A program made the translations under genes and the position numbers. A model generated the notes under the pieces. The model made no database searches. It saw only the letters and a list, made by a program, of their open reading frames with translations, and had not been told where the DNA came from. Positions 74 through 22,732 of a DNA stretch of 64,000 bases are shown here, piece by piece. Every line of letters starts with the position of its first letter. Position 1 is the first letter of the stretch. The stretch spans positions 96,001 to 160,000 of the forward strand of contig CM000154.2 of the NCBI GenBank assembly GCA_000004695.1, given 5' to 3'. Origin of the DNA: Dictyostelium discoideum. Lineage: Eukaryota.

Positions 74-1686
74 TTATGAACCCATTTGATCTAACATATT
101 TTTTAAATAATCTTTTTTATAAAAGTGTAAATATAAAGTAATGAAAACACCAATTAATAAAAATGAACCTAAACCAATTAAAAAATATTGTAAAGGATAA
201 ATTTTTGCATTTGATAAAAAATTTATAACCAAAACTAAAATAAAAATAATTGAACTTAAAATGGGTAATATTAAATGTCTAATGATTTGAAAGTCTTGAA
301 ATTGATTTAATCTAACATATCTAATCACTGCAATATTTGTAATAATAAAAATGATAATTATTGGAATTGTACCTGTAAAACTTAAATAATTATAAACTTC
401 CCAACAAGATTTTGCATAAATATTTTTAGTTGAACCAACAATTAATCCAATCATTAATATTATAAATCCAATTAAACTAATTATTGCGAAATGTGGTGTT
501 TTAAATCTTTTATTAGTTTTACCTAAATAAGAGATTACACCACTCTCTTTAGTTTTACCAAACGAATAAATTATTCTAAAAACAATATTAAACCAACTAC
601 TAACTACACCAAATCCAGATACTACACCTGCAATATCAACAATTATAGAGAACCAATACCCAACAAATCTATTTGCATATAGTTGAATGGGTGATTGATT
701 AACATTTATTGAAAATATATTTGAAGGTCCAACAGCAACAACCAATGAATACATTGCCCATATAAACCAAGTTGCAGCAAATGCAATTGAACCATAAACT
801 GCAATTGGTATATTCTTTTTTGGATTTCTAGTTTCTTGACCTAACGTAGCTGCACCTTCAAATCCAACAAATAAAAAACAACAATAAACCAAACCAGTTG
901 CAATACCTGAAATTCCACCTGAATTTTCACCAACTGGTGTGAATGCCAACGGATAATTACCTTGATCACCACCTTTAATAACAATAGAAAATGATAGTAC
1001 CAACATTACTAAAGTTTCTAAAATCATCGCAACTATACTAGTTTTCAAAACAACATCAATACCAATATACGCCAATGTTGGTACAATTGTTAATACTAAA
1101 AATGTACTAAGAATCCACGGACAATGAAAACCACAATACCTTGAAATTAAATCTGAAAACCCTCCTGAAAATTGTAAAATAACACTTGAAAGAATTAATA
1201 AATATCCAGTAATTAAAATCCAAAAACTTAAAAACCCCATTTCATTTCCTAATCCTTTTGTAATATAAACAAAGAAAGATGCACTACTACTAATATACTA
1301 AATATTATTTGTTTATTTTTTTTTTTATTTTTATTTTTTTTTTTAAATAATTTTATTTTATTTTCATATTAATTTTTAAAAATAATACTACATACAGTTC
1401 CAAATATACTAATTGTATTTGCAATTGATAAACAACATAATGTACCAATAAAAACTGTAAATGGTACACTCGTACCTGCTGATGCTGCAATATTTGGAAA
1501 AACAAAAAAAGTTGCTGCACTTAATCCAATACCACCAACTGATAATGCAATACATTCAATTACACCAATAGTATTTTTTTTTAATGTATTAAATTCATCA
1601 TCAACTGTTATTCCACTAGTACAACTATCAAAACTTGAATTTGTACTTAAATCACTACTTTTACAATTTATTTTTTTTAATTCCAT
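74..1686 (-). CDS. APC-superfamily amino-acid permease, tandem paralog 1 (exon 1 1396-1686, exon 2 74-1297)
   Basis: Exon 1 (MELKKINCKSSD...LKKNTIGVIECIALSVGGIGLSAATFFVFPNIAASAGTSVPFTVF...ISIFGT) ends at a GTATGT donor. Acceptor ...tttag precedes YISSSASFFVYITKGLGNEMGFLS..., which continues into ORF 74-1240. APC signature F.GFEGAATLGQETRNPKKNIP is present. The N-terminal MFFFLF part of track ORF 1369-1755 is just poly-A translation; the real ATG is at 1686 by paralog comparison. Confidence 0.8.
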
Positions 1687-2174: not shown

Positions 2175-3777
2175 TTATAAACTCATTTGATATAGCATAT
2201 TTTTTAAATATTCCTTATTGAAACGGTATAAAAAAAACATTACACACACACCCATTAATAATAAAATTCCTAACCCAATTAAAAAATAAGGAATTGGATA
2301 TTTTGGTGATGGATAAAAATTACCACCCAAAATTACAGTGAACAGAATTGCACTAAATATTGGTAAAATCATATGTCTGAAAAGTTGGAAATCTTTTGAT
2401 TGATAAACTTTAACATATCTAATCACTGCAATATTTGAAATTATAAATATTAAAATAATTGGAATTGTACCAGTAAAACTAATATAATTGTAAACTTCCC
2501 AACTCGATTCTGTATAAATACTTTTAGTTGAACCAACAATAATTGACGACATTAAAATTATAAAACCAGTTAAACTAATGATTGCATTATGTGGAGTTTT
2601 AAATTTTTGATTTGTTCTACCAAACCATGAAATAATTCCTTTCTCTTTAGTTTTACCAATTGAATAAATTATTCTAAAAACTATATTAAACCAACTACTA
2701 ATTACACCAAAAGTTGAAACTACACCAGCAATATCAATAATAACAGAATACCAAAATCCAATATATCTCTTTGCATAAATTCCAACAGGAAACTCATTTG
2801 TATCAATTGAAAATATATTTGAAGGCCCAGCAGCAACAACCAACGCATACATTGCCCATATAAACCAAGTTGCAGCAAATGCAATTGAGCCAAATACTGC
2901 AATTGGTATATTCTTTTTTGGATTTCTAGTTTCTTGACCTAATGTAGCGGCACCTTCAAATCCAACGAAAATGAATGTACAATAAACCAAACCAGTGGCA
3001 ATACCCGAAACTCCTCCGGAATATTCGCCAACTGGTGTGAATGCCAACGGATAATTACCTTGATCACCACCTTTAATTACAATTGTAAATGATAATCCTA
3101 AAATTACCAATGTCTCTAAAATCATTGCAATTATACTAGTTTTCAAAACAACATCAATACCAATATATGCCAACGTTGGAATTATCGTTACCACTATTAA
3201 TAAACTTAATATCCATGGACAATGAAAATCAGAATGCCTTGTTATTACATCTGAAAGCGAACCAACAAACATAAACATTGCGGACATCATAATTGCTAAA
3301 TATCCAATCATTAAAATCCAAACACTTAAAAATCCCATTTCATTTCCTAATCCTTTTGTAATATAAACAAAAAATGATGAACTACTACTAATATACTATA
3401 GATTTTTTTTTTTTTTTTTAAAAATTTTATTTTAATATTTTTATTTTAATTATTATAATTTTTAAAAATAAACTTACTTTACCAAATATACTAATTGTAT
3501 TTGCTACTGTTAAACAACATAATGCACCAAAAAAAATTGTAAATGGTACACTTGTACCTGCTGATGCTGCAATATTTGGATAAACAAAAAATGTTGCTGC
3601 ACTCAATCCAATACCACCAACTGATAATGCAATACATTCAATTACACCGATAGTATTTTTTTTTAATCCATCATAATGTGAATGATTATCTTCTTCATGT
3701 GATGAATTTATTCCTTCATTTTCAATTATTGCTCCCTCTTTTTGGAAATTTACTATATTACTATTTTCTAAACTCAT
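2175..3777 (-). CDS. APC-superfamily amino-acid permease, tandem paralog 2 (exon 1 3478-3777, exon 2 2175-3395)
   Basis: ORFs 3427-3777 and 2175-3338 are joined by a GTAAGT donor after ...SIFGK (phase 0) and a ctatag acceptor before YISSSSSFFVYITKGLGNEMGFL. Intron position and phase are identical to paralogs 1, 3 and 4. The product is about 506 aa with multiple TM segments. Confidence 0.85.
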
Positions 3778-4039
3778 TTTTAGATAATAAAAAAAAAAAA
3801 AACAAAAATAATAAAAAAAAAAAAATATTTAAACACGTATGTCATTTTTTACTTATTTTTATTTTTTTATTTTTGTTTTTTTAATATATCTCCCCACAAC
3901 ACACACCCACACTCCAATAATAATAGTTTTTTTTCAGAATTATTTAATATTAATTATTTATTCTCTATTTGCTTTAATAAAAAAATAAATAAAAATTAAT
4001 TATAACCAAATAATTAGTTGGTTTTTTTTTTTTTTTTTA

Positions 4040-4097
4040 AGATATAAAGTAATTAAAAGATATCCAATTATTTTGACTAAACTAATTTTAACTAATT
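4040..4097. promoter_or_regulatory. Conserved CCAAT-containing upstream block of permease paralog 2
   Basis: agatataaagtaattaaaagATATCCAATTATTTtgactaaactaatt lies about 260-320 bp 5' of the copy-2 ATG (3777, minus strand). A near-identical block recurs at the same relative position upstream of copies 3 and 4. Confidence 0.45.
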
Positions 4098-4159
4098 ATT
4101 TAATAAATAAATAAATAAATAAATATATAAATAAATAAATAAATAAATAAATTAATTAG

Positions 4160-4560
4160 TTTTTTTTTTTTCAAAGACCAATAATTTATATTATACTTTT
4201 ATAGAAGAAATTTTCATCATAAAAATTATTTCTTTGATTACAAATATTAATTAGGATACTAAAATCACCATAGTTTCGCCAATAACTAACATCAATGATA
4301 ATTTCAATGCTGGATTAATACCCACATAGGCTTATGCTGATATTAAAAGGTATGAATCTAGCATTTAAATTCTTTTACAAATGCTGCTATTATCCATGGG
4401 CAATGAAAATCAGTATCCCTCGATATTACATTGACTGTCGTTGAACTAAATTGAATCACCGTTTGCACTGATAATATTAAATAACCAATGATCATTAACC
4501 AAGCCGTTAAAAATCCCATCTCTTTTCCTAATCCTTCTGAAATAATACATATTATATATA
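4160..4560 (-). pseudogene. Internally deleted remnant of a divergent (copy-5 type) permease paralog
   Basis: Positions 4262-4560 are about 85% identical to copy-5 segment 9958-10210 (encoding ...EGLGKEMGFLTGWLMIIGYL...FHCPWI...). Positions 4190-4250 match the copy-5 3' end/stop region (8846-8900, gaaattttcatcataaa...aattatttctt). The two ends are joined with about 1.05 kb of ORF missing. There is no intact reading frame. Confidence 0.6.
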
Positions 4561-4674
4561 GTATCTTTTTATGTGTTTTTTTTATTGTTCTAATTTAATA
4601 TTTTAATTGTATTATTTAATAAAATAATAAATAAATATTAAAACCCTATATTTGTTTTTTATTTTTATCACCAA

Positions 4675-6275
4675 CTACAAACTCATTTGATAGAGCATAT
4701 TTTTTAAATATTCCTTATTGAAACGGTATAAATAAAACATTACACACACACCCATTAATAATAAAATTCCTAATCCAATTAAAAAATAAGGAATTGGATA
4801 ATTTGGTGATGGATAAAAATTACTACCCAAAATTACAGTGAAAAGAATTGCACTAAATATTGGTAAAATCATATGTCTGAAAAGTTGGAAATCTTTCGGA
4901 TGGTAAACTTTAACAAATCTAATTACGGCAATATTTGTAATTATGAATATTAAAATAACAGGGATTGTACTAGTGAAACTAATATAATCATAAACTTCCC
5001 AACTCGATTCTGTATAAATATTTTTAGTTGAACCAACAATAATTGACGACATTAAAATTATAAAACCAGTTAAACTAATGATTGCATTATGTGGAGTATT
5101 AAATTTTTGATTTGTTCTACCAAACCATGAAATAATTCCTTTCTCTTTAGTTTTACCAACTGAATAAATTATTCTAAAAACTATATTAAACCAACTACTG
5201 ATTACACAAAATCCAGAAACAACAGAAGTAATATCAATAATAACAGAATACCAAAATCCAATATATCTCTCTGCATAAACTCCAACTGTAAATTGAGATG
5301 TATCAATTGAAAATATATTTGAAGGTCCAACAGCAACAACCAATGAATACATTGCCAATATAAACCAAGTTGAAGCAAATGCAATTGAACCAAATACTGC
5401 AATTGGTATATTCTTTTTTGGATTTCTAGTTTCTTGACCTAATGTAGCGGCGCCTTCAAATCCAATAAAAATGAATGTGCAATAAACCAGACCAGTGGCA
5501 ATACCTGAAAAACCACCTGAATATTCACCAAACGGTGTGAGTGCTAATGGATAATTACCTTCATCACCACCTTTAATTACAATTGTAAATGATAGTACCA
5601 ACATTACCAAAGTTTCTAAAATCATTGTAATTATACTAGTTTTCAAAACAACATCAATGCCAATATATGCCAACGTTGGAATTATTGTAACAACAATTAT
5701 TAAACTTAATATCCATGGACAATGAAAATCAGAATATCTTGTTATTACATCTGAAAGTGGATTAACAAACATAAACATTGAACCCATCATATTTGCTAAA
5801 TATCCAATCATTAAAATCCAAACACTTAAAAATCCCATTTCATTTCCTAACCCTTTTGTAATATAAACAAAAAATGAAGCACTACTACTAATATACTATT
5901 TTTTTTTCAAAAATTTTATTGTTTTATTATCACTATTATTATTTTAATTTTACAATTTTTAAAAAATAAACATACTTTACCAAATATACTAATTGTATTA
6001 GCAAGTGTTAAACAACATAATGCACCAATAAAAATTGTAAATGGTACACTTGTACCTGCTGATGCTGCAATATTTGGAAAAACAAAAAATGTTGAAGCAC
6101 TCAATCCAATACCACCAACTGATAATGCAATACATTCAATTACACCAATAGTATTTTTTTTTAATCCATTATATAATAAATCATTTTCTTCTTTATTTGA
6201 CGAATTTATACCTTTATTTTCAATTATTACTCCTTCTTTTTGGAAATTTAGTATATTACTATTTTCTATACCCAT
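4675..6275 (-). CDS. APC-superfamily amino-acid permease, tandem paralog 3 (exon 1 5976-6275, exon 2 4675-5895)
   Basis: MGIENSNILNFQKEG...LKKNTIGVIECIALSVGGIGLSASTFFVFPNIAASAGTSVPF...ISIFGK is followed by a GTATGT donor. Acceptor ...aaatag precedes YISSSASFFVYITKGLGNEMGFLSVW. The exon structure is identical to copies 1, 2 and 4. Confidence 0.85.
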
Positions 6276-6524
6276 TTTTCGACAAAAAAAAAAAAATAAA
6301 TAAAAAATAAAATAGTTTACGCACTGTGAACCTTATTTTTATTTATTTTGTTTTTTTTCATATCCTAACTACAAACCCCGTACTCCAATAATAATAATTT
6401 TTTTTAGTATTGTTTATTATAAATTATTTGTTCATTATTTACTTTTTTATTTTATCTGAAAAAAAAAAAAAAAATTAATTAAACGGGTGCCGAAATAATT
6501 TTTTTTTTTTTTCTTTTTGTTTTT

Positions 6525-6585
6525 AGAGATAAAAAATAATTAAAATATATCCAATTATTTATAGTTAACTAATTTAAACCAATTG
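6525..6585. promoter_or_regulatory. Conserved CCAAT-containing upstream block of permease paralog 3
   Basis: agagataaaaaataattaaaatATATCCAATTATTTatagttaactaatttaaaccaattg lies about 250-310 bp 5' of the ATG at 6275. Confidence 0.45.
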
Positions 6586-6941
6586 ATCGATTAATTTTTT
6601 TTTTGTTGATAATTTCCAAATAATTTTTAAGTTTAGAAGCCGAAAAAAATACTTTTTTTTGGGTAATAATAAAATTGGCAAACTGTATTTTAGCTTTTTT
6701 GGTAAAATATTAAATAAAAAATTATAAAAATAATAAAAATACTCTTTTTTTCTACTTTATTTTATAATTTTTTTTTTTTTTTTTTTAATATCTTGTGTTT
6801 GAGAAGTAGATTTATTAAAGTAATTATATACAGTATCTTTTTTTAAGGATTTTTTTTCTAATTTAAATTTTAATTGTAATATACAATAAAATAATAATAA
6901 AAAAAATTTTAAACCTTATATTTTATTAATTTTATCAATAA

Positions 6942-8539
6942 TTACAAACTCATTTGACAGAGCATATTTTTTAAATATTCTTTATTGAAACGGTATAAAA
7001 AAAACATTACACACACACCCATTAATAATAAAATTCCTAATCCAATTAAAAAATAAGGAATTGGATAATATGGTGGTGGATAAAAATTACCTCCCAAAAT
7101 TACAGTGAATAGAATTGCACTAAATATTGGTAAAATCATATGTCTAAAAAGTTGGAAATCTTTTGATTGATAAACTTTAACATATCTAATCACTGCAATA
7201 TTTGAAATTATAAATATTAAAATAATTGGAATTGTACCAGTAAAACTAATATAATCATAAACTTCCCAACTCGATTCTGTATAAATATTTTTAGTTGAGC
7301 CAATAATAATTGCCGATATTAAAATTATAAAACCAGTTAAACTAATGATTGCATTATGGGGAGTCTTAAATTTTTGATTTGTTCTACCAAACCATGAAAT
7401 AATTCCTTTCTCTTTAGTTTTACCAATTGAATAAATTATTCTAAAAACTATATTAAACCAACTACTGATTACACTATATCCAGATACAACAGAAGTAATA
7501 TCAATAATAACAGAATACCAAAATCCAATATATCTCTCTGCATAAACTCCAACTGTAAATTGAGATGTATTAATTGAAAATATATTTGAAGGTCCAACAG
7601 CAACAACCAATGAATACATTGACATAGTAAACCAAGCTGCAGCAAATGCAATTGAGCCAAAAACTGCAATTGGTATATTCTTTTTTGGATTTCTAGTTTC
7701 TTGACCTAATGTAGCGGCGCCTTCAAATCCAATGAAAATGAATGTACAATAAACCAAACCAGTGGCAATACCTGAAATACCACCTGAATATTCCCCAACT
7801 GGTGTGAATGCCAGCGGATAATTACCTTGATCACCACCTTTAATTACAATTGCTAAAGATAGTACCAACATTACCAAAGTTTCTAAAATCATTGCAATTA
7901 TACTAGTTTTCAAAACAACATCAATACCAATATATGCCAACGTTGGAATTATTGTTACAACAATTAATAAGCATAATATCCATGGACAATTAAAATCAGA
8001 ATGCCTTGTTATTACATCTGAAAGTGAACCGACAAACATTAACATTCCTGAAATCAAATTTGTTAAATATCCAATTATTAAAACCCAAACACTTAAAAAT
8101 CCCATTTCATTTCCTAATCCTTTTGTAATATAAACAAAAAATGATGAACTACTACTTATATACTATTTTTTTTTTTCAAAAATTTTATAGTTTTAATATT
8201 ATTAATATTTTAATTTATAATTTTAAAAAATAAACTTACTTTACCAAATATACTAATTGTATTAGCAAGTGTTAAACAACATAATGCACCAATAAAAATT
8301 GTAAATGGTACACTTGTACCTGCTGATGCTGCAATATTTGGAAAAACAAAAAATGTTGAAGCACTTAATCCAATACCACCAACTGATAATGCAATACATT
8401 CAATTACACCGATAGTATTTTTTTTTAATCCATTATTTAATAAATCACCATCTTCTTCATGAGATAAATGTATACCTTTATTTTCAATTATTACTCCTTC
8501 TTTTTGGAAATTTACTATATTACTATTTTCTATACCCAT
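6942..8539 (-). CDS. APC-superfamily amino-acid permease, tandem paralog 4 (exon 1 8240-8539, exon 2 6942-8162)
   Basis: The start MGIENSNIVNFQKEG is assigned by alignment to paralog 3. The track ORF's upstream MRMDMKKTKNK... extension is probably 5' UTR. A GTAAGT donor follows ...SIFGK, and a ...ag acceptor precedes YISSSSSFFVYITKGLGNEMGFL. Confidence 0.8.
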
Positions 8540-8750
8540 TTTTTGATAATTAAAATAAAATAATAAAAAAAAAAAAAAAAATGCAAGCACTGTGTAAACC
8601 TTATTTTTTGTTTTTTTCATATCCATCCTCACCTCAAACCGATTGTTTATTATTAATTATTTGTTCACTATTTACTTGACCATTTTATATCTCATAAAAA
8701 AAAAAAAAAAAAAATTAAACCCTAATCCAAATAATTAATTTTTTTTTTTA

Positions 8751-8810
8751 AGATATAAAATAATTAAAAATATATCCAATTATTTATAGTAGACTAATTT
8801 AAACTAATTG
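8751..8810. promoter_or_regulatory. Conserved CCAAT-containing upstream block of permease paralog 4
   Basis: agatataaaataattaaaaatATATCCAATTATTTatagtagactaatttaaactaattgg lies about 210-270 bp 5' of the ATG at 8539. Confidence 0.45.
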
Positions 8811-8845
8811 GTTAATTTTTTTTTTTTTTTCCCAAAATAAATAAT

Positions 8846-10553
8846 TTATTTAATACTTTTATCAATGAAATTTTCATCATAAATAAAATTATTTCTTGGT
8901 GTATTAATTGAAGAAGTTGTTGGAATATATTCAGTGATATCATCATGATTATAATGTTTATTAAAATCAATAGGACCACTACCATTACCATTTGAATTGG
9001 AAGAAGTTGAAGAAGTTGTACCATCATGAGCAATCATAAAGCTCATTTTCTCTAATAAACCTTTCTTTGAACGTAAAATAAACATAATTATAACACCAAT
9101 TAAAATTAAAGCGCCTAAAGCAATTAAAAGATAAGAATAAGGTTTTTGAGGAACATCAGGATAAAAATTACCAACTAAAACTGCACTGAATAATATGGCA
9201 CTAATGAGTGGTAATATTAAATGATAGAATACATGATAATCTTGAGGTTGTTTCAATTTAACGTATGGTATAACGGCAATGTTTGTAATGATGAAAATTA
9301 AAATTAATGGAATTGTACCAATATAACTTAGATAACCATAAATTCTCCAAGAATTGTCAGTGTAAATACCCCAAATCGAAGCTACAATTACCAAACTTAG
9401 AGTGACAAAGGTTGAAAAGGCAATGATTGCTGCCATTGGAGTTTGAAATCTTTTACTTGTAATTGCCAATTTATTTACCACTGAATTACAATCACTCTTT
9501 CCAATTGAATATAAAATTCTAAATAAATTATTGAAAGCACTTGTACAAACATTAAAAGTTGATGAAATACCCGCTAAATCCACTAAAATCGAAAACCAAT
9601 AAGATACATATTTTCTTGCAAAAGTTTCCGCTGGTGAATTGATTGAAGAGATAATGAAAATATTTGAAACACCAACAGCAACAACCATTGCATACATTGC
9701 CCAAACCATCCATGCCGATGTTAATACTACTGAACCAACCACCGCAACCGGTATATTCTTTTTTGGATTTCTAGTTTCTGCACCCAATGTTGCAGCAACT
9801 TCAAAACCAATGAAAACAAGTACACAATAAACCAAACCTCTTGCAATACCTGAAACTCCACCTGAATAATCACCAGCTGGTGTGAATGCTAATGGATAAT
9901 TACCTTGATCACCACCTTTGATTACAACTATCAATGTGAAAACTAAAATCACCAAAGTTTCACCAATTACCAATATCAATGATAATTTCAATGCTGGATT
10001 AATACCCACATAGGCTAATACTGATATGAATAGTATAACAAATGCTGCTGCCATAATCCATGGACAATGAAAATCAGTATTCCTCGATATTACATCGGCT
10101 GTCGTTGAACTAAATTGAATCACCGTTTGTACTGATAATGTTAAATAACCAATGATCATTAACCAACCCGTTAAAAATCCCATCTCTTTTCCTAATCCTT
10201 CTGAAACATAACTATAGAATGATGATGATGTACTAATATATCTACCAAATGTACTAATCGTTGATGACATTGATAAACAACATAATGTAGCTATCATCAA
10301 TGTAAATGGTACACTACTACCTGCAACCATAGCAATTTGTGGGAATACAAATAAAATACCTGTTGTTGGTCCAACCCCTCCAATTGAAAATGCTATACAG
10401 TGAATTAATCCTAATGTATTCTTTTTTAATTCTTTACCATTACCATTACCATTATTATTATTATTATTATTATTATTTTTATCTTCGTTTGTTGATGCAA
10501 ATATATCGGAATGATCTTCTTCTTCAATTTTAAATACCATTTTACTATTATTA

Positions 10554-10635
<82 letters not shown>

Positions 10636-10843
10636 TTATGAATGATGATAATAATGGTACTTTTATATTTTCATTATCATTATCATTATAATTATTATTA
10701 TCATTTATATTATTATGGTTATCAATATTATTTTTATTATTATTATTATTATAATTATTATTATTATTACCACTATTTAAAGTGGTGGTTCTTTTTCCAT
10801 TATTGGATTTTACTGCATCTTTTGAAACAATACGACCACTCAT
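8846..10843 (-). CDS. Divergent intron-less APC-superfamily amino-acid permease paralog 5 with an Asn-rich N-terminal extension
   Basis: A single 665-aa ORF holds the same APC core (LKKNTLGLIHCIAFSIGGVGPTTGILFVFPQIAMVAGSSVPF...GFEVAATLGAETRNPKKNIP) at about 55% identity to copies 1-4. The position where copies 1-4 carry their intron is read through (FGRYISTSSSFYSYVSEGLGKEMGFL). (AAT)n tracts encode poly-N stretches. Confidence 0.85.
10537..10640. repeat. (ATT/AAT)n microsatellite inside the CDS (encodes poly-Asn on the minus strand)
   Basis: A perfect trinucleotide array of about 34 units lies inside paralog 5. Confidence 0.9.
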
Positions 10844-11316
10844 TATATTATGGGCGTTGTAAATAATTTATATATTTGTGTGTTTGAGGTGGGTAATCAA
10901 TTTAAATGGTAATTATATTTTTAAATACATATTATATACAATTTATAAGTAGGTTTTTTTTTTTTATTATTTTTTGTAAAATTAAAAAAAGAATTATGCG
11001 TGTGGTTAAACAATAAGGTGGTTAATATGTTGTCATAATAAAAAAAAAAAAAATTATGAATATAAAATTATTTTTTTTTTTTTTTTTTTTTTTTTTTATT
11101 TTTTTTTTTTTTTTTTTTTTGTTTTCCTGGTTGGTTTGGGAAATCAAAAAGAGATATTTTGAGTGTGGGAAAATAAAAAAAATAATAAAAATAAAAAAAT
11201 AAAAATTATTTTATATTCCTTTTTTTTTTCATTGAACCTTCAGTTCAAATATTATTTTTCACTTTACATTTTATAAATTCATTTTTAAATTATTTTTTAT
11301 TTCTATAATTTCCAAA

Positions 11317-11357
<41 letters not shown>

Positions 11358-11639: not shown

Positions 11640-12752
11640 ATGAAACTTTTAATGTCATTAATTTTGACAATTACATTATTATCAACAATTAATGTTAATG
11701 CAACAGAAACATGGAGATGTATTAAAAGTGGTCAAGGATGTTTTATTGAAGGTGATGATATCTGTCCAAAAGGAGAATATTGCAATCCAAATCAAGAAAC
11801 CTCAAAAAATGATAGTAGTACTAGTAGAACTGGTAATCCATTACCAAGTGGAACATGTTTACCATTAATTAAAGAAGGACAACCATGTTATTTATATCAA
11901 AGATGTGATTTTGGTTTACATTGTAAAATTCCACCAACTCAATTTCCAGGAGATCAATATAGTGTTGAAGGAATATGTGTTTCATCAAAGTTTTTAATGG
12001 TTGGTGAAAATTGTTCAAATGATTCAGAATGTTTAGGTCGTTTAGAATGTAAAAATCAAAAATGTACACCACAAGATTCTGAATATGGATATGAATGTTA
12101 TATGGATGAAGATTGCCCTTCTGGGAACTTCTGTTACTGGGGATCAAATAAAAATCTATGTAAACCTTTAAATAAAATTGGTTCAAATTGTACCTATGGA
12201 AATGATTTCACATTAGGTTCAATTTGTAGAAATAATAAGTGTATTGAAAAATTCTCTTTAAAAAATGGTGAAATTTGTTTAGAAAGAGAAGATTGTGAAT
12301 CATATACTGTAATTATTTAAATTATTAATATATATATATATAGATATATATATATATATTTATATATATTAACCTTAAAACAATATTATTTTTAAAAGTG
12401 TGATTATAATTTATTAGAAAATGGTGATAGAAATATTTCAATATTTAATAATTATTATTGTCAAAAAAAAGAATTTAATTCAAATGATTGTAAAAAAGAT
12501 GGTTGCAAAAATAATGGTGAAATTTGTGATTTTAATTCAAATAAATGTTTGGATTCTTATCCAATAGGTTCTGAAAAATGTAAATCAGCAACTAAACTTA
12601 GAGATTATTGTTTCATTAAAAATAAATGTCCCCTTAGAACTAATTTCAATGTTGAACAAAGAAATAAAAAATCATGCAATATAAAATATTGTGAATTTGA
12701 AATTAATAATTATTTAGAAAATTGCATTTTAGAATCAACTTATTGTAAATAA
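11640..12752 (+). CDS. Secreted cysteine-rich protein (signal peptide plus multiple Cys-rich repeat modules), 2 exons 11640-12308 and 12399-12752
   Basis: The N-terminal signal peptide is MKLLMSLILTITLLSTINVNA. Cys is spaced in C..C...C......C modules. A GTAATT donor after ...ESYT (phase 0) and an aaaag acceptor before CDYNLLENGDRNIS... are in phase and join onto track ORF 12549-12752. The intron is a (TA)n tract. Confidence 0.6.
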
Positions 12753-22636: not shown

Positions 22637-22640
22637 ATAA

Positions 22641-22723
<83 letters not shown>

Positions 22724-22732
22724 ATATACAAC

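Follow-up and report, generated by a model that had tools for sequence, protein, structure and literature searches.

The permease array

The window, by which we mean the whole 64-kb stretch of Dictyostelium discoideum DNA that was analysed, has a G+C content of ~23%, is rich in simple repeats and contains no tRNA genes over its 64 kb. It is 99.8% identical to the corresponding region of D. discoideum assembly GCA_054883475.1. Its first 11 kb carry five amino-acid permease genes of the APC family (Pfam AA_permease and AA_permease_2), all on the minus strand. We refer to them as type A (four copies) and type B (one copy):

74-1686, minus strand: A1 (type-A permease, copy 1), intact, one intron
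2175-3777, minus strand: A2 (type-A permease, copy 2), intact, one intron
4675-6275, minus strand: A3 (type-A permease, copy 3), intact, one intron
6942-8539, minus strand: A4 (type-A permease, copy 4), intact, one intron
8846-10843, minus strand: B5 (type-B permease, copy 5), intact, 665 aa, APC-family AA_permease; the living paralogue of the remnant described below

The intact A and B genes match both the PF00324 and PF13520 profiles (E 1e-23 to 1e-25), and the proteins of the two types are ~50-55% identical. B5 has long Asn-rich extensions at its N- and C-terminus. Each type-A gene contains a single intron of 77-98 nt, which follows ...ISIFGK in all four. Neither the B gene nor its orthologues have an intron at this position, pointing to gain or loss of an intron between the two paralogue types.

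A2 corresponds exactly to the AX4 gene DDB_G0287425 (XP_637219.1), and the window belongs to AX4-type chromosome 5. The AX4 model DDB_G0287301 (XP_637220.1; 1054 aa) consists of A4 and A3 fused, translated through the spacer (6276-6941) and with short stretches of both genes skipped; in all likelihood, two separate permease genes of 506 aa each have been wrongly annotated as one. A full-text literature search for DDB_G0287425 and DDB_G0287301 found no papers.

A type-B remnant between A3 and A2

In the direction of transcription, the A3 stop (4675) is followed by a type-A 3' flank (4674-4559), a B remnant (4558-4152) and the A2 upstream region (4104-3720), the last of which is homologous to the A3 and A4 upstream regions. 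The flank and the remnant, hereafter psiB, are made up as follows:

4559-4674, minus strand: A3 3' flank, homologous to the A4 flank (6832-6941) and the A2 flank (2065-2174)
4152-4558, minus strand: the whole of psiB, a putative type-B pseudogene remnant (B-upstream tag, codons 213-310, last 17 codons, stop, 3' flank)
4544-4558, minus strand: B-upstream tag TATATAATATGTATT, 15 nt, identical to 10924-10938, 81-95 nt upstream of the B ATG
4232-4542, minus strand: mid piece, homologue of B codons 213-310 (9916-10206), 85% identical
4332-4334, minus strand: nonsense TAA at the Leu276 position, TTA in B (10016-10018); also in the orthologous remnant of strain L005 (see below)
4232-4234, no strand: internal deletion junction, the two sides overlapping by 3 nt (CTT), with 1021 bp of B (8898-9918) missing
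4183-4234, minus strand: B C-terminal end, last 17 codons and stop, equivalent to 8846-8897; RNNFYDENFFYKSII and a stop, vs RNNFIYDENFIDKSIK and a stop in B
4152-4182, minus strand: B 3' flank, equivalent to 8812-8845; runs colinearly into the copy 2 upstream region

By BLASTN of positions 4100-4700 against the whole window, the mid piece was identical to B 9916-10206 at 266/311 positions (E 6e-100), and the 3' piece (4152-4234) matched B 8812-8897 with 82.6% identity over 86 nt (E 5e-19). The alignment score of the mid piece was 402, compared with 21.5 +/- 2.9 for 300 dinucleotide shuffles (z > 100). The 3' piece scored 97 vs 26.6 +/- 4.7 for dinucleotide shuffles, and its coding-only part (4183-4234 vs 8846-8897) scored 64 vs 20.2 +/- 3.8. 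Both matches share the strand of the array and persist after DUST masking. A preliminary description of this DNA had reported two copy-5-like matches in the orientation of the array, and this was borne out (85% and 83% identity, both above shuffles); the matches were retained after low-complexity masking, at identities above the ~60-70% of background AT-rich matches within the window. Chance similarity of AT-rich low-complexity DNA, for which the base composition and many simple repeats of the window might speak, is thus refuted by an 85% match over 311 nt that stands far outside the shuffled scores and is DUST-proof, and by the translation of psiB, which reads as B protein.

Two details of the preliminary description had to be corrected. 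Its coordinates for the pieces were ~30 nt off, the junction lying at 4232-4234 rather than 4240-4262, and the piece that it called a 5' coding segment represents codons 213-310 of 665, the first 212 codons being absent. Over the same ungapped columns, the mid piece shares 88% of positions with D. discoideum B genes as opposed to 58-63% with the A copies, and the fragment is therefore of type B.

The homology continues beyond the coding remains. The region upstream of copy 2 (3720-4104) matches 8482-8816, and 3720-4234 as a whole is colinear with the B5-to-A4 boundary (8482-8897). This bears on the idea that psiB is an ectopic patch, i.e., that B pieces were copied into an existing A-A spacer by gene conversion or template switching, which would account for a mosaic of three non-adjacent B pieces. 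The pieces, however, keep the order and orientation of B and are colinear with the B-A intergenic DNA that precedes A2, exactly as where B5 borders on A4. Complementary pieces, moreover, occupy the same positions in other strains (see below), and deletion from a whole copy needs fewer events. We consider such a patch very unlikely.

Just downstream of psiB lies an (AATA)n microsatellite of 13.8 copies (4102-4156), which matches a longer array of that unit at 22638-22726; the two are probably unrelated simple sequence.

Disabling lesions and large deletions in psiB

On the minus strand, the translation of psiB reads ...SEGLGKEMGFLTAWLMIIGYLILSVQTVIQFSSTTVNVISRDTDFHCPWIIAAFVKEFKC and a stop, is shifted in frame by an insertion of ~20 nt (near 4350-4385, in the mid piece), continues as ...A, a stop, AYVGINPALKLSLMLVIGETMVILVS, a stop and LIFVIKE, and then jumps out of frame to RNNFYDENFFYKSII and a stop. 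The mid piece thus contains in-frame TAA/TAG stops, and the C-terminal piece is out of frame with it.

Between the two pieces, the preliminary description had noted the absence of about 1 kb of reading frame, in agreement with the 1021 bp measured here. This gap, which can be placed equally well at 8895-9915, shifts the reading frame and removes codons 311-649. A second large deletion of ~717 bp (10207-10923) took codons 1-212 along with promoter-proximal DNA. Of roughly 2100 bp, some 360 are left; ~83% of the gene is gone, start included. The microhomology that the preliminary description proposed to look for at the internal junction is present as the 3-nt CTT overlap; it is, however, at chance level, since random deletions simulated in the B gene gave an overlap of at least 3 nt in 7.9% of trials, and it carries no information on the deletion mechanism. 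A coincidence of the 5' end of psiB with the type-A intron position was considered and rejected, the intron lying 39 nt further upstream (after ...ISIFGK).

In a Pfam profile search, the 60-aa ORF of psiB gave no AA_permease match at E <= 1. Judged by its sequence, psiB is no working permease of the APC family.

Related loci and strains

Seven loci from related genomes, chosen from homologues of the permeases, were compared. L003 is the locus of this window in the near-identical assembly, L005 comes from a roughly 8% divergent D. discoideum strain (GCA_054859355.1) and L004 from D. cf. discoideum ACTFIY (GCA_054859205.1). The four other taxa, D. firmibasis, D. citrinum, D. dimigraforme and D. 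cf. discoideum ACTFIZ, have a single B-A-A1 arrangement with no B debris, in which the A flank leads directly into the A1 upstream region. Their A1 is orthologous to A1 of the window, and their sole A is co-orthologous to A2, A3 and A4, always being nearest to A2. D. citrinum A is 87.0% identical to A2 vs 85.1% and 84.1% to A3 and A4. As outgroup A genes are nearest to A2, the upstream duplicates A3 and A4 appear to evolve faster than A2. Among the loci examined, expanded arrays occur only in D. discoideum (L003, L005) and D. cf. discoideum ACTFIY (L004). A second intact B alternating with A was found at none of the seven loci, where extra B copies are represented by relics only.

Identity of the psiB segment falls from 88% with D. 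discoideum B to 81% with D. citrinum B and 76% with D. firmibasis B, indicating that the duplication is younger than the splits from those species. In L005, the orthologous psiB (11700-11990) lies between the equivalents of A3 and A2 and has different breakpoints. There, the B-upstream sequence TTACCATTTACATTGAT is fused to about codon 235; a 12-nt deletion follows, then ~30 nt beyond the internal breakpoint of the window, and then a jump to B 9011-8958. This remnant keeps the equivalents of B 9915-9884 and 9011-8958, both gone from the window, and is without the B stop region that the window retains. The different breakpoints and complementary retained pieces show that the large deletions occurred independently, after the strains had split. 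A left breakpoint of the internal deletion common to L005 and the window, apparent in the BLAST table, was discarded, because L005 extends ~30 nt further after its 12-nt deletion.

Across 183 comparable columns, the two psiB remnants share six derived substitutions and have 17 and 16 private ones. Among those shared is the nonsense change from TTA to TAA at Leu276, from which it follows that inactivation began before the strain split. The remnants differ by ~21%, compared with 2% for the intact B genes of those strains over the same columns, a divergence that fits neutral drift or lack of constraint.

Two further arrangements were observed in the expanded arrays. L005 has an extra unit absent from the window, in which a B relic (7781-7967; promoter, ATG, 16 codons and 30 nt of the B 3' half) is followed by an internally deleted type-A pseudogene (8436-9354). 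The array of L004 comprises two A copies plus A1, and its A-A spacer holds a 70-nt inverted B piece (11288-11357; codons ~133-155, 91% identical) beside a B-upstream relic (11201-11271). The type-A pseudogene and the inverted scrap of B indicate that the spacers are unstable.

A common junction in the spacers between type-A genes

Two further features of the window concern the boundary between type-A 3' flank and B-derived DNA:

4551-4568, minus strand: junction of the tandem duplication, AAAGATACT / RTATATAAT, joining A 3' flank to B-upstream DNA
6784-6840, minus strand: second, smaller B relic in the copy 3-copy 4 spacer (S34); the junction, then ~50 nt resembling B upstream 10867-10918

Exact copies of the 15-mer TATATAATATGTATT occur only at 4544-4558 and 10924-10938 in the 64 kb, with 0.18 matches expected at <=1 mismatch; taken alone, its score was equalled by one shuffle. 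The tag marks where the duplicated B copy originally began at its 5' end. Within the window, the junction is found only at 4551-4568 and 6823-6840; it recurs at 7777-7794 of L005 and, in a diverged form, in L004. Every inter-A spacer of the expanded arrays opens with this one common junction of A 3' flank and B-upstream DNA, and multiple alignment revealed that the last ~10-30 nt of the apparent "A flank" in these spacers are B-upstream DNA. The A2 flank, which belongs to the last unit, is without the junction and continues into sequence conserved in the outgroups.

What follows the junction differs from spacer to spacer. In L005, it leads into ~100 nt from upstream of B and on through the ATG and 16 codons (SGHIFSKDVVKSNNGK), with 129/158 identical positions and a score of 167 vs 26.8 +/- 4.1 for shuffles. 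In L004, ~65 nt of B upstream DNA follow (score 61 vs 28 +/- 4.5 for shuffles). In S34, the likeness to B upstream DNA is weak by itself (score 34 vs 23.2 +/- 3.4 for shuffles) and the junction motif is specific. This small relic is visible only in the multiple alignment; BLAST searches for B-like DNA in spacers S34 (6590-6840) and S12 (1740-2080) returned only AT-rich background. Some 170 nt of S34 (6605-6780) have no detectable relative in B, A or the rest of the window. This stretch is conserved in strain L005 (9517-9690, partly 8010-8065).

These data also bear on whether psiB was ever a complete gene. A partial duplication that began inside B at about codon 213, with the 1021-bp deletion as the only secondary loss, would explain why the B homology ends abruptly at 4542, ~10-25 nt from the A 3' flank. 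However, the DNA between that flank and codon 213 is the exact B-upstream 15-mer, the same flank/upstream junction is present in S34 and in L005, where a complete B promoter and start follow, and the L005 remnant has another B-upstream piece (TTACCATTTACATTGAT) joined to about codon 235. A partial duplication is accordingly very unlikely. Within the window alone, the promoter and start of psiB are evidenced only by the 15-nt tag and the junction motif. We infer a full-length second B from the complementary relics that the different strains retain.

The proposal in the preliminary description that the array had once alternated two permease types is supported by the outgroup B-A-A1 order, the common junction, and the B promoter, ATG and 16 codons in L005. 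It holds in the sense that a B+A pair was the amplified unit; A1, in contrast, is an older paralogue that was never part of the alternation. The same description envisaged a single type-B member deleted internally. Such an internal loss, of 1021 bp, did occur, but it was accompanied by the ~717-bp loss at the 5' end, and more than one B copy decayed, as the S34 relic attests.

Gene models that involve psiB

In the public annotation of the L003 assembly, model KAM9946746.1 (ACTFIT_000061, 563 aa; L003 10001-11918) splices A3 (...NMLYQM) onto a psiB stretch (KGLGKEMGFLTAWLMII...KEFKC; window 4366-4542), with GTTTGT at the A3 stop as donor and TTTCAG at 4542 as acceptor. If real, the first open stretch of psiB (4542 to ~4366) would be an alternative terminal exon of A3, exapted to give a predicted chimeric, strain-specific permease with a 57-residue, B-derived transmembrane tail. 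Besides the NCBI model itself, the GT at the A3 stop (ATGA/GTTTGT) and TTTCAG/AAGG at 4542, which together give an open frame, are in its favour. Yet the GTTTGT donor differs from GTAAGT/GTATGT, which the genuine introns of this region use, and the tail, a piece with two transmembrane helices, breaks off at the frameshift and has no domain match alone. In L005, the acceptor and most of the ORF are deleted, and the model of the A3 orthologue gives a normal protein of 506 aa. In the AX4 annotation, A3 stops at ...YQMSL, and the sequence changes at a neutral-looking rate. Thus, there is very little likelihood that psiB serves as an exon of A3.

The D. firmibasis model RB653_007997 (1139 aa; L001 10001-13954) has the domain order AA_permease / AA_permease_2 / AA_permease and, from its length and this order, appears to fuse B and A; in the model after it (1950 aa), A1 seems to be joined to downstream genes. 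psiB accounts for three doubtful public models, namely DDB_G0287301, KAM9946746.1 and RB653_007997.

Origin of the remnant

We conclude with good confidence that psiB is a non-processed (duplicated) pseudogene, the remains of a complete second type-B gene that was whittled down by independent deletions. It shows homology to a functional paralogue, disabling lesions, co-duplicated flanking non-coding DNA and lack of constraint, and has neither the poly(A) tail nor the target-site duplications that retroposition leaves behind. As regards the array, there is an unduplicated outgroup state and a common novel junction at every repeat boundary; intact alternating B copies are present at none of the seven loci.

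The amplified unit, ~4.1 kb long, began at about -96 of the B ATG, took in the whole of B, the intergenic DNA between B and A, and A itself, and ended at about +110 past the A stop. The ancestral arrangement was probably B-A-A1. After the split from D. citrinum, D. dimigraforme and D. firmibasis, this ~4.1-kb B+A unit would have been duplicated in tandem, at first perhaps by microhomology-mediated or unequal exchange, and unequal crossing-over may then have amplified it again to B-A-B-A-B-A-A1. The extra A copies would have been kept intact, while the extra B copies, presumably redundant, lost function and were inactivated, with the TTA-to-TAA change predating the separation of the two D. discoideum lineages. 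The dead B copies would then have shrunk by independent deletions, in a putatively deletion-biased erosion. In the window, the B copy between A3 and A2 would have lost ~717 bp and 1021 bp, and the copy between A4 and A3 almost everything. The adjoining A3 3' flank and A2 upstream region are conserved, presumably since the genes next to them require these stretches, and selection there may limit the spread of deletions.

Most likely psiB does nothing, and in itself it is of little biological importance. It does, however, date and define the B+A unit (~4.1 kb) behind a D. discoideum-specific permease array, and it offers a clean case of a pseudogene decaying rapidly by deletion in a compact AT-rich genome.

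Comparison with known systems

With respect to the APC permeases (PF00324, PF13520; DDB_G0287425, DDB_G0287301 and the B gene), the reading frames of psiB align with transmembrane segments of B (codons 213-310) and with its C-terminal 17 residues. Chimeric genes that capture an exon of a downstream pseudogene resemble the present case in that one automated model joins A3 to psiB; unlike them, the psiB model is a prediction that depends on a weak splice donor and on an exon that is deleted in another strain. The closest likeness is to the vertebrate psi-globin genes, non-processed pseudogenes in tandem arrays, which likewise arose by tandem duplication together with flanking non-coding DNA, share the orientation of the adjacent functional paralogue, carry nonsense, frameshift and deletion lesions and change at a roughly neutral rate. 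Compared with such classic duplicated pseudogenes, psiB is far more eroded, and two strains of D. discoideum differ in its breakpoints. That a single relic has different breakpoints suggests that decay was fast and deletion-biased. From all that can be read in its letters, psiB is an ordinary fossil of tandem duplication, of the textbook kind, and not a working element.
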